Shown piece after piece: positions 2,642 to 3,646 of a stretch of DNA of 47,690 nucleotides. The DNA is from an uncultured Tepidisphaeraceae bacterium. Its GTDB lineage: Bacteria; Planctomycetota; Phycisphaerae; Tepidisphaerales; Tepidisphaeraceae. Numbering within the stretch: the stretch's first letter is position 1; each line of letters opens with the position of its first letter. The stretch is taken from positions 1-47,690 of the forward strand of contig CAYNMV010000029.1 of assembly GCA_964398315.1 (NCBI GenBank). The letters are read 5' to 3'. The translations under genes were made by a program, and so were the position numbers. The notes under the pieces were generated by a model. It was given only the letters and a program-made list of their open reading frames with translations. It searched no databases and had not been told where the DNA came from.

Positions 2642-3646
2642 ATGCCGAGCCTGATCCTCCAATTCGATGGCAATCCCCCGGACAAGAAGCGCTGCGGTGG
2701 GGTATTCCATGGGCGCGTGCTCATCGGGCGCAAAGCCGTCTGCGACCTGGTCATCGACGACCCTGCGGTGTCGCGCGTCCATGCCTGGATCGAACCGCGC
2801 AACGGCGGCTGGTACATCGGCGATACCGGCGGGGCCAACGGGGTGAGCATCAACCAGCAGCGCATCGATCGCGGCGCCATGCTGCAGGATGGGGACCAGA
2901 TCGAGATCGGCCCGGCACGGCTGACCTTCCATACAGGCGAGGCGCTGCCGCGCGGCATCCGCCTGCTGGCGCTCGACCAGGCCGGCCAGCCGCCGCCTCC
3001 CGACCCGACCGGCATGCTGGTCAACTGCGCCTGCGGCGCGCCACAGTGGGTACCGGCCGCCCGCGCGGTGCGGGAAAGGACCTGCCGCCACTGCGGCGCG
3101 GCCGTGCGCCCGGATGCTCCTGCCGGCGACAGTTCACCGACCGACAGCATCGCAGACGCCGCCCCCACATGCAGTATCTGCCAGTGCGCCATCATCGCAG
3201 GTGAGGCAACCCAGACCTGCCCGGATTGCCAGCTCGTTTTCCACGCCGACTGCTGGCGTGAGAACCTGGGGTGCAGCGCCTATGGCTGTCCGCAGGTGAA
3301 CGCGCTGGCGTCCGAGCCGGTCTACCGGCCCATCCTGCCCAGCACCGGGCCGATTTTTGAATCTCCCGCCCCCGAAACCAACCGCACACCCTGGGAACAC
3401 CTGCTCCTGATCGCAGCGGTCCTCGCCACCGTGCTGGGGATGCTCGCGTTTGGCACGCCGGCATTGGTCGTGGCGCTGCTGGCACTGATCCTGCTCCTGC
3501 GCGGCCGGACACGGCCGCTGGCCCGATCCACCGCGCCGGCCGCCCAGGTTGAACTGCGCCGGCCGATCCTCATCGCCTCACTGCTGCTGTCGTTGGGTGG
3601 CGCGATCGGCGGGATTTTCACATCCTGGGCCTGGTGGATGCGGTGA
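2642..3646 (+). CDS. N-terminal FHA domain, a CxC...CxxC zinc-ribbon-like pair, a RING/PHD-like treble-clef cysteine cluster, and two C-terminal TM helices (putative membrane-anchored E3-like adaptor)
   Basis: FHA domain at aa ~22-97 (GRVLIGRKAVCDLVIDDPAVSRVHAWIE...NGVSINQQRI...GDQIEIGPARLTF). Zinc-ribbon-like pair CAC...CRHC at aa 129-151. Cysteine cluster at aa 177-216 with spacing C-x2-C-x-C-x10-C-x2-C-x4-H-x2-C-x5-C-x4-C (CSICQCAIIAGEATQTCPDCQLVFHADCWRENLGCSAYGC). Hydrophobic helices at aa ~254-288 and 307-330. Confidence 0.7.
   Translation: MPSLILQFDGNPPDKKRCGGVFHGRVLIGRKAVCDLVIDDPAVSRVHAWIEPRNGGWYIGDTGGANGVSINQQRIDRGAMLQDGDQIEIGPARLTFHTGEALPRGIRLLALDQAGQPPPPDPTGMLVNCACGAPQWVPAARAVRERTCRHCGAAVRPDAPAGDSSPTDSIADAAPTCSICQCAIIAGEATQTCPDCQLVFHADCWRENLGCSAYGCPQVNALASEPVYRPILPSTGPIFESPAPETNRTPWEHLLLIAAVLATVLGMLAFGTPALVVALLALILLLRGRTRPLARSTAPAAQVELRRPILIASLLLSLGGAIGGIFTSWAWWMR

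Follow-up and report, generated by a model that had tools for sequence, protein, structure and literature searches.

A membrane-anchored FHA/RING-type protein of an uncultured Tepidisphaeraceae bacterium as a putative E3-like member of a bacterial operon for ubiquitin-like conjugation

Overview of the FHA/RING protein

The DNA analysed here (the window) is a 47,690-nucleotide (nt) stretch of contig CAYNMV010000029.1 (assembly GCA_964398315.1) from an uncultured Tepidisphaeraceae bacterium. Near its start, a 334-amino-acid (aa) protein is encoded that carries an FHA domain, a zinc ribbon, a Prok-RING_1-type C4HC3 finger and a C-terminal transmembrane (TM) anchor. With moderate confidence, this protein is taken to be a membrane-anchored, phosphothreonine (pThr)-guided E3-like component of a bacterial ubiquitin-like protein (Ubl) conjugation operon. 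Shown directly by the analysis are the domain identities, the conservation of the zinc ligands, the RING-like predicted fold, the conserved operon, the C-terminus of the Ubl and the catalytic motifs of the E2 and JAB proteins. A first-pass annotation of the window had proposed an E3-like substrate adaptor, and the proposal is strengthened by eight invariant Cys/His ligands in the finger and by an E2 gene lying directly downstream in 58 of 66 loci, the binding of that E2 being predicted from these features. The open reading frame (ORF) was correctly delimited in that annotation and is a real gene, with 99 homologues at E<=1e-3. Conservation figures given below for this protein refer to an alignment of 43 full-length homologues that are 32–55% identical to the window protein. 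A relative is encoded by 249 species-representative genomes, nearly all of them metagenome-assembled genomes of Phycisphaerae/Tepidisphaerales, together with a few Pirellulaceae, Blastopirellula and Planctomicrobium and one member of the Verrucomicrobia.

The Cys/His finger

The eight ligands of the finger (C177, C180, C193, C196, H201, C204, C211 and C216) are invariant in the 43 orthologues, as are W205, N208, G210, Y214 and G215, and the full pattern reads C-x2-C-x12-C-x2-C-x4-H-x2-CW-x5-C-x4-C. The Cys cluster first noticed at residues 177–216 is thus present and of the C4HC3 kind, but two details of its original description did not hold: C182, which had been written into the pattern, is not a ligand and varies among orthologues (S, W, A, T), and the spacing between C204 and C211 is x6 rather than x5. 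The two checks suggested for the cluster, ligand conservation and a cross-brace topology in a structure model, both turned out in its favour. In the AlphaFold2 (AF2) model, DSSP places C193 and C196 in the turn of a primary hairpin (strands 190–192 and 199–201), H201 and C204 at the start of a helix (202–207), and C211 and C216 in the following loop, a predicted arrangement that fits an interleaved treble clef and corresponds to the cross-brace layout described previously (PMC4678705).

When searched alone against Pfam, the window protein gave only sub-threshold matches for this region, to C1_1 (0.007), Prok-RING_1 (0.0073), zf-RING_2 (0.014) and zf-RING_16 (0.028). Across the family the assignment is clearer, as 42 of the 43 orthologues match Prok-RING_1 (PF14446) at E<=0.01, with a best value of 2.6e-8; fewer orthologues match C1_1 (28/43, weakly) and zf-RING_2 (5/43). 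A profile restricted to the RING region retrieved 4153 sequences at E<=1e-3 from 1.84 billion cluster representatives, 559 of them reaching E<=1e-10. Prok-RING_1 is matched at E<=1e-3 by 127 of the best 133 of these library representatives, with 1.4e-40 as the best value; an FHA domain is also present in 61, and the PHD model matches 12. Against sequences from the PDB, the same profile identified the RING-H2 protein EL5 (2.4e-5), the PHD finger 1wev (4.7e-4) and Arkadia (2.6e-3), followed by the Pygopus PHD finger and C1 domains, in alignments that span ligands 1–6 only. An entry ranked ahead of EL5, the tandem C2H2 zinc-finger protein 2i13 (Aart), was rejected as spurious.

Membership in the two neighbouring fold families was also considered. 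The finger has the C4HC3 ligands of a PHD finger, but it does not have the conserved Trp two residues before ligand 7. Comparison with the C1 pattern (H-x12-C-x2-C-x13/14-C-x2-C-x4-H-x2-C-x7-C) revealed a similar core spacing; the conserved His is absent from the variable linker before C177, and the additional C-terminal Cys, C216, is invariant. Membership in both families was rejected on these defining residues. As modelled, the finger is concluded to be a Prok-RING_1 member, a binuclear treble clef of cross-brace topology. Its designation as an E2-docking RING derives from the genomic context, and sequence alone does not separate RING from PHD/C1.

The FHA domain

The FHA domain that had been located at residues ~22–97 is borne out by its Pfam match (Table 1) and by the AF2 model, in which residues 3–97 form a beta-sandwich. 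Residues G29, R30, S44, R45, H47 and G67 are invariant among the orthologues, and the canonical set for binding phosphate, G29-R30 with S44-R45-x-H47, is among them; the window protein has N66, where most orthologues have Thr. Both the Pfam match and the G-R and S-x-x-H site residues expected of an FHA domain were found. The closest relatives of solved structure are GarA (2e-10), Rv1747, OdhI and EmbR, all bacterial pThr readers, and neither RNF8 nor CHFR is among the FHA matches to solved structures at E<=1e-3. From its residues, the domain appears to be of the pThr-reading type, of the bacterial GarA kind, and would be expected to bind pThr.

A zinc ribbon common to the E3-like protein and the E2

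Between the FHA domain and the finger lies a small zinc ribbon, noted originally as a CxC...CxxC element at residues 129–151 and upheld by the alignment: C129 and C131 never vary, and at least 90% of sequences keep C148 and C151. The ribbon is modelled by AF2 with a pLDDT of about 81–90. It shares homology with the ribbon at the N-terminus of the E2 encoded downstream (hhalign against the E2 ribbons, probability 97.8%, E=9e-13), and the motif I.F.C..CG...VP...AG...C..C....VP is common to both proteins. Since the two ribbons are homologous, a common docking partner, or mutual recruitment of E3 and E2, is suggested.

Membrane anchor and architectural variants

The C-terminal region exhibits two hydrophobic blocks (aa 250–293 and 307–328) and a conserved G.L.FG.P.L motif in the orthologue alignment. 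Two TM helices had been proposed initially; the AF2 model resolves the blocks into three helices, a hairpin followed by a longer third helix (Table 1). An Arg-rich loop separates the second and third helices and, by the positive-inside rule, points to a cytoplasmic location of the N-terminal domains.

Several relatives depart from the full architecture. The ribbon is missing from the FHA-RING-TM protein of locus L068, only RING and TM regions are found in L078 and L081, a TM-ribbon-RING-TM arrangement occurs in L080, and a degenerate FHA domain with a Pro/Ala linker of ~300 aa is encoded in L069 and L072. Judged from these variants, the RING and TM regions are the invariant core of the family, and the FHA domain and ribbon its accessories. 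Some relatives among the library proteins (P0100–P0104 and P0093) contain two to four tandem copies of the finger, or fusions to GYF_2, WD40, RDD, MshEN or formylglycine-generating-enzyme domains, and the finger is therefore employed well beyond Ubl operons.

The conserved Ubl operon

Gene order was examined by tblastn of the window proteins against the loci of relatives, 66 of which could be tested for the E2 and 62 for the upstream genes. The order E1-JAB-(TM-FHA)-FHA/RING/TM-E2 is found in most loci, across Phycisphaerae. Besides the E2 directly downstream, JAB is encoded upstream of the FHA/RING gene in 48 of the 62 loci, the E1 in 47 and the multi-TM protein with an FHA domain (TM-FHA) in 37. 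The gene had been described as lying between a JAB gene and an E2 gene; the E2 gene is indeed the next one downstream, but the immediate upstream neighbour is the TM-FHA gene, and JAB lies two genes upstream.

Upstream of the E1 in relatives is a gene for a ~89-aa Ubl with a match to YukD (PF08817, 9.8e-10). In the window genome this gene would lie upstream of the window, a position deduced from the relatives. The Ubl is 72–85% identical among most of 40 loci, and the lowest values (58–69%) belong to Verrucomicrobia and Planctomicrobium; the E3-like proteins of the same loci are only 30–45% identical. In all 40 loci the Ubl contains an invariant PEITAG, followed either by a stop codon or by a tail of 1 to ~20 unrelated residues. 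This ending is characteristic of modifiers whose C-terminal end a peptidase uncovers, and it agrees with a suggestion, reportedly made in the abstract of Burroughs et al. 2011, that YukD-like Ubls may be conjugated. Because the C-terminus is of the processed type and a full E1/E2/JAB set is encoded, covalent conjugation is expected. The E2 has the motif TP.FHPN...IC.GDHW, in which the HPN and the catalytic Cys are conserved in 57 orthologues, and its best PDB relatives are Ubc13/UBE2N (2e-6).

The FHA domain of the TM-FHA protein is non-canonical, with 'IGS' in place of 'IGR' and 'VGRRHA' in place of 'VSRxHA' consistently across 41 orthologues, so that both canonical phosphate ligands are replaced. 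The membrane domain of this protein did not match any Pfam family.

In one subclade (L011, L013, L017, L019, L021, L025, L026, L030, L031, L046 and L071) the order is E1-JAB-FHA/RING/TM-E2, with the TM-FHA gene missing, and a PEITAG-type Ubl was not found within 10 kb at these loci.

Exopolysaccharide genes were also observed beside the operon. In 32 of 80 loci, the Ubl operon is flanked by genes encoding a Wzc-like bacterial tyrosine kinase (BY-kinase; Wzz/GNVR/P-loop), a Bac_transf initiating sugar transferase and a WecG glycosyltransferase, for example at L005:3882-6065 (-), L010:2353-3435 (-), L005:2196-2990 (-) and L011:15044-19644. These neighbours are usually divergent from the Ubl gene, and in L008, L011 and L023 they lie downstream of the E2. 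The linkage is retained through rearrangements and, with BY-kinase identity of only 31–43%, survives deep divergence; the recurrent linkage may reflect a functional link to exopolysaccharide export.

Proposed mechanism

The complete operon, as assembled from the relatives, would encode in order a YukD-like Ubl, an E1, a JAB peptidase, the multi-TM FHA protein, the FHA/zinc ribbon/RING/TM protein and an E2 with an N-terminal zinc ribbon. In the proposed pathway, JAB would remove the variable tail that follows PEITAG in the Ubl and so expose the Gly, after which the Ubl would be adenylated by the E1 and handed to the catalytic Cys of the E2 through thioesters. The C4HC3 finger would then dock the E2~Ubl on the inner membrane, at its cytoplasmic side, and the FHA domain would recruit a threonine-phosphorylated target or regulator, making tagging dependent on a Ser/Thr kinase signal. 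The ribbon common to E3 and E2 would probably provide a second, common contact. E2 docking, ligase activity, phospho-dependence, the nature of the substrates and the role of the ribbon are the predicted parts of this scheme.

A broader version of the scheme places the protein in a clade-wide housekeeping pathway, as opposed to a defence island. Ser/Thr-kinase marks would be read by the FHA domain of a membrane-anchored RING E3, and the Ubl would be attached to components of the envelope or of the exopolysaccharide export machinery. This version is put forward because of the BY-kinase and sugar-transferase neighbours, the strong conservation of the Ubl and the ribbon common to E2 and E3, and it is held to be tentative and rather unlikely as it stands.

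Alternative explanations

Several observations weigh against an E3-like role guided by pThr. The lone window protein scored 16.7 bits (E=0.0073) against a PF14446 cut-off of 29.1 and lies below the family threshold when taken by itself. The spacing between ligands 4 and 5 is x4, which is PHD/C1-like and not that of a classical RING, the C1_1 and PHD models also match members of the finger family, and Foldseek returned a mixture of RING-H2 and PHD matches with weak E-values (0.04–0.3). In canonical RINGs, contact with the E2 is made by a hydrophobic residue lying between ligands 1 and 2, by another hydrophobic residue or a Trp on the helix, by a Pro that follows ligand 7 and by a basic linchpin that follows ligand 8. 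The first two speak for E2 docking here, since the finger has a hydrophobic I/V/A at C1+2 and W205 on the helix is invariant. The last two speak against it, as C211 is not followed by the Pro, nor C216 by a basic residue. FHA-RING-TM genes stand by themselves at L038, L039, L042 and L044, with no E1, JAB or E2 gene within 10 kb; these may be paralogues or may have a use outside the operon. Neither the window nor the flanks of the relatives contain an operon-linked Ser/Thr kinase or phosphatase gene. Finally, the FHA domain and ribbon are missing from some orthologues and are therefore not essential to the core function.

The properties of the finger leave room for the alternative that it is a PHD/C1-like module for a peptide, a lipid or the membrane, and that the protein is a membrane scaffold or a substrate of the pathway, with the E2 acting without an E3 or being recruited only through the common zinc ribbon. 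The C4HC3 arrangement with x4 between ligands 4 and 5, the C1_1 and PHD matches counted above, the missing Pro and linchpin Arg, and the scores of PHD fingers (1wev, Pygopus and MLL) close to those of RINGs in the PDB-profile and Foldseek searches all fit such a module, and the homologous ribbons would offer an alternative route of recruitment. Prok-RING_1 nevertheless far outscores C1_1 and PHD across the family, the C1-defining N-terminal His ligand and the PHD-typical Trp before ligand 7 are both absent, and the E2 gene is tightly and persistently adjacent, which together make this alternative unlikely.

The FHA domain might instead bind the YukD-like Ubl, or another partner, non-covalently rather than pThr, in which case the protein would be a Ubl receptor or assembly platform. 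In a structure determined by cryo-electron microscopy for the type VIIb secretion system (T7SSb) of B. subtilis, YukD contacts and stabilises the FHA domains of YukB (PMC12637312), and the Ubl of the present operon is YukD-like. The FHA domain of the window protein also matches the non-phospho Yop-YscD_cpl model (2.7e-15), neither phosphate ligand is retained in the operon's other FHA protein, and a kinase gene linked to the operon was not found. Such a role is nonetheless considered quite improbable, given that the E3-like protein keeps G-R and S-R-x-H invariant in its own FHA domain, that its nearest relatives, GarA foremost, are proven pThr readers, and that the processed-type Ubl C-terminus with a full E1/E2/JAB set points to covalent conjugation.

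An anti-phage operon of the Bil or type II CBASS (cyclic oligonucleotide-based anti-phage signalling system) kind, with the RING protein guiding attachment of the Ubl to phage proteins at the membrane, is very improbable: uncharacterised bacterial Ubl/E1/E2/RING operons are predicted to be antiviral in one passage of the literature (PMC10557695), and the E1 and JAB give generic matches to CBASS Cap2/Cap3-like and BilD models, but four of the six proteins (RING protein, E2, TM-FHA protein and Ubl) are without a PADLOC match, the order is conserved in a large fraction of the species genomes of Phycisphaerae/Tepidisphaerales beside housekeeping-type exopolysaccharide genes, the window has no composition anomaly, and the Ubl is highly conserved in most loci, unlike patchy, fast-evolving defence islands. 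Membership in the known Bil and type II CBASS systems was accordingly rejected, PADLOC having returned nothing beyond the generic E1 and JAB matches.

Comparison with known systems

The membrane-anchored E3-like reading is closest to the Prok-RING_1 operons, the family (PF14446) and the bacterial Ubl-E1-E2-RING-JAB operon type both reportedly having been predicted from genome comparisons by Burroughs, Iyer and Aravind in 2011. The window protein and its surroundings resemble these in the C4HC3 binuclear finger, the C-terminal TM helices (aa 251–332), the E1/E2/JAB/YukD-like Ubl neighbourhood and the Planctomycetes host, and they differ in the score of the lone protein, which lies below the Pfam gathering score as given above. 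In one passage of PMC4197634, Ub-E1-E2-RING-JAB operons of Actinobacteria, Planctomycetes and Acidobacteria are credited to Burroughs 2011; prokaryotic RINGs are described as C4HC3 fingers whose last ligand pair encloses a longer insert in a passage of PMC11354881, and prokaryotic RING family 1 as 'characterized by a transmembrane domain' in a passage of PMC4029887. Because the finger family and the operon type had been predicted in 2011, the present finding is modest as a discovery, and because the finger belongs to an already named Pfam family, the idea is less new than the first-pass annotation assumed. Literature searches returned no experimental study of a bacterial FHA-RING E3 or of a Prok-RING_1 member.

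The compact operon of Caldiarchaeum subterraneum, reportedly composed of Ub, E1, E2, small-RING and Rpn11 genes (Nunoura 2011), likewise combines a modifier and an E1 with a UBC-fold E2 that has HPN, a RING-type E3 and a peptidase of the JAMM kind (Rpn11). In contrast, the present system has a modifier that is YukD-like and does not resemble ubiquitin in sequence, a bacterial host (Phycisphaerae), an E3 that is anchored in the membrane and bears both an FHA domain and a zinc ribbon, an E2 with a ribbon at its N-terminus, and an extra multi-TM FHA protein. The archaeal cascade has been reconstituted in vitro (PMC5654768, Hennell James 2017), so compact operons of this kind can be functional.

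The domain pair of the eukaryotic E3 ligases RNF8 and CHFR had been recognised in the window protein at the outset. The order of an N-terminal FHA domain and a C-terminal RING is the same, as is the implied logic of a pThr reader coupled to E2 recruitment, and Ubc13, to which the E2 of the operon is closest, is the partner E2 of RNF8. This likeness is one of analogy and not orthology, since the FHA domain is nearest to those of GarA, OdhI and Rv1747 and the finger is a C4HC3 Prok-RING_1 rather than a C3HC4 RING. Orthology to RNF8/CHFR was rejected, the best FHA matches being bacterial and the domain order being the only common feature. The bacterial-type FHA domain, the C4HC3 finger, the membrane anchor and the loss of the FHA domain from some orthologues together argue that the architecture is convergent.

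Bil and type II CBASS (Cap2/Cap3) resemble the present system in their E1-like adenylation enzyme, E2-like carrier, JAB or other peptidase and conjugation of a bacterial Ubl. They have no RING E3, no FHA domain and no membrane anchor, and the distribution of the present operon is clade-wide and syntenic rather than island-like. The T7SSb module also encodes a YukD-like beta-grasp protein with membrane proteins bearing cytoplasmic FHA domains. T7SSb YukD is not conjugated (PMC1779556) and directly binds FHA domains (PMC12637312); that module is without E1, E2 and JAB, whereas here the Ubl has a conserved ...AG end, removable tails and a full conjugation set.

Among prokaryotes, nothing comes closer to the ubiquitin cascade of eukaryotes than the bacterial Ubl/E1/E2/RING E3/JAB operons, and the family described here would be a compact and testable case in which Ubl ligation is coupled to phosphorylation and takes place at the membrane. 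It is abundant and has cultivable hosts in Tepidisphaerales, such as Humisphaera. If the E3-like reading is correct, crosstalk from kinase to E3 would have arisen in bacteria independently of eukaryotes, and the envelope/exopolysaccharide version, if true, would supply a bacterial inner-membrane counterpart of eukaryotic phospho-dependent ubiquitylation. Interest is raised by three leads, namely the ribbon common to E3 and E2, the degenerate second FHA domain and the recurrent BY-kinase/sugar-transferase neighbourhood. The family could reveal what such systems regulate, and the link to exopolysaccharide genes is a concrete lead.

Gene neighbourhood in the window

The window starts inside a gene cluster on the forward strand and has a GC content of ~65% throughout, with no compositional break. 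The features of the operon are listed in Table 1. The first of them is the C-terminal part of the E1, for which tblastn returned relatives with 43–64% identity, directly upstream of JAB in 47 of 62 loci; the full-length orthologue at L005:6683-7993 matches ThiF (1.7e-53). The JAB protein that follows is presumed to be both the tail-processing and the deconjugating enzyme of the Ubl.

Table 1. Coordinates of the Ubl operon genes, the domains of the FHA/RING protein and the adjacent permease gene in the window
Feature	Position (nt)	Strand	Basis and details
E1 (ThiF-family adenylating enzyme), C-terminal part	1..513	+	Frame open from window start; CxxC...CxxC motif
JAB/MPN+ metallopeptidase	504..1313	+	PF01398 9.4e-14, Prok-JAB 8e-9; intact HTHP...SGMD motif
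Multi-TM protein with C-terminal non-canonical FHA (nt 2346-2537)	1320..2573	+	FHA 7.3e-13; 4-5 hydrophobic segments
FHA / zinc ribbon / RING / TM protein, 334 aa	2642..3646	+	ORF, Pfam, orthologue alignment, AF2
FHA domain, aa 3-97	2648..2932	+	PF00498 6.4e-18 over aa 26-90
Zinc ribbon, aa 121-155 (C129, C131, C148, C151)	3002..3106	+	Cys conservation, AF2, hhalign
Prok-RING_1-type C4HC3 cross-brace finger (predicted), aa 175-222	3164..3307	+	Ligands C177, C180, C193, C196, H201, C204, C211, C216
Membrane anchor: helical hairpin aa 251-268 + 272-290, third helix aa 300-332	3392..3637	+	Hydropathy, AF2 DSSP
E2 (UBC fold)	3831..4514	+	PF00179 3.8e-8; N-terminal zinc ribbon nt 3843-3950; core HPN...IC.GDHW nt 4113-4424
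AzgA-type purine permease	4623-5951		No counterpart in related loci

The AzgA-type permease that follows the E2 is not part of the Ubl system. Further along, the window contains ordinary genes encoding an NAD-dependent epimerase with DUF1731 (6118-7098), an SppA-type S49 peptidase (7161-9143, -) and a PilM-like protein (20003-22189). None of the neighbours between 4515 and 22189 (the permease, epimerase, S49 peptidase and PilM-like genes) is conserved beside the operon in relatives. Another 'eukaryote-like' domain is encoded at 25905-27143 (+), where the ORF matches baeRF family 3 (bacterial archaeo-eukaryotic release factor; PF18845, 2.7e-31).

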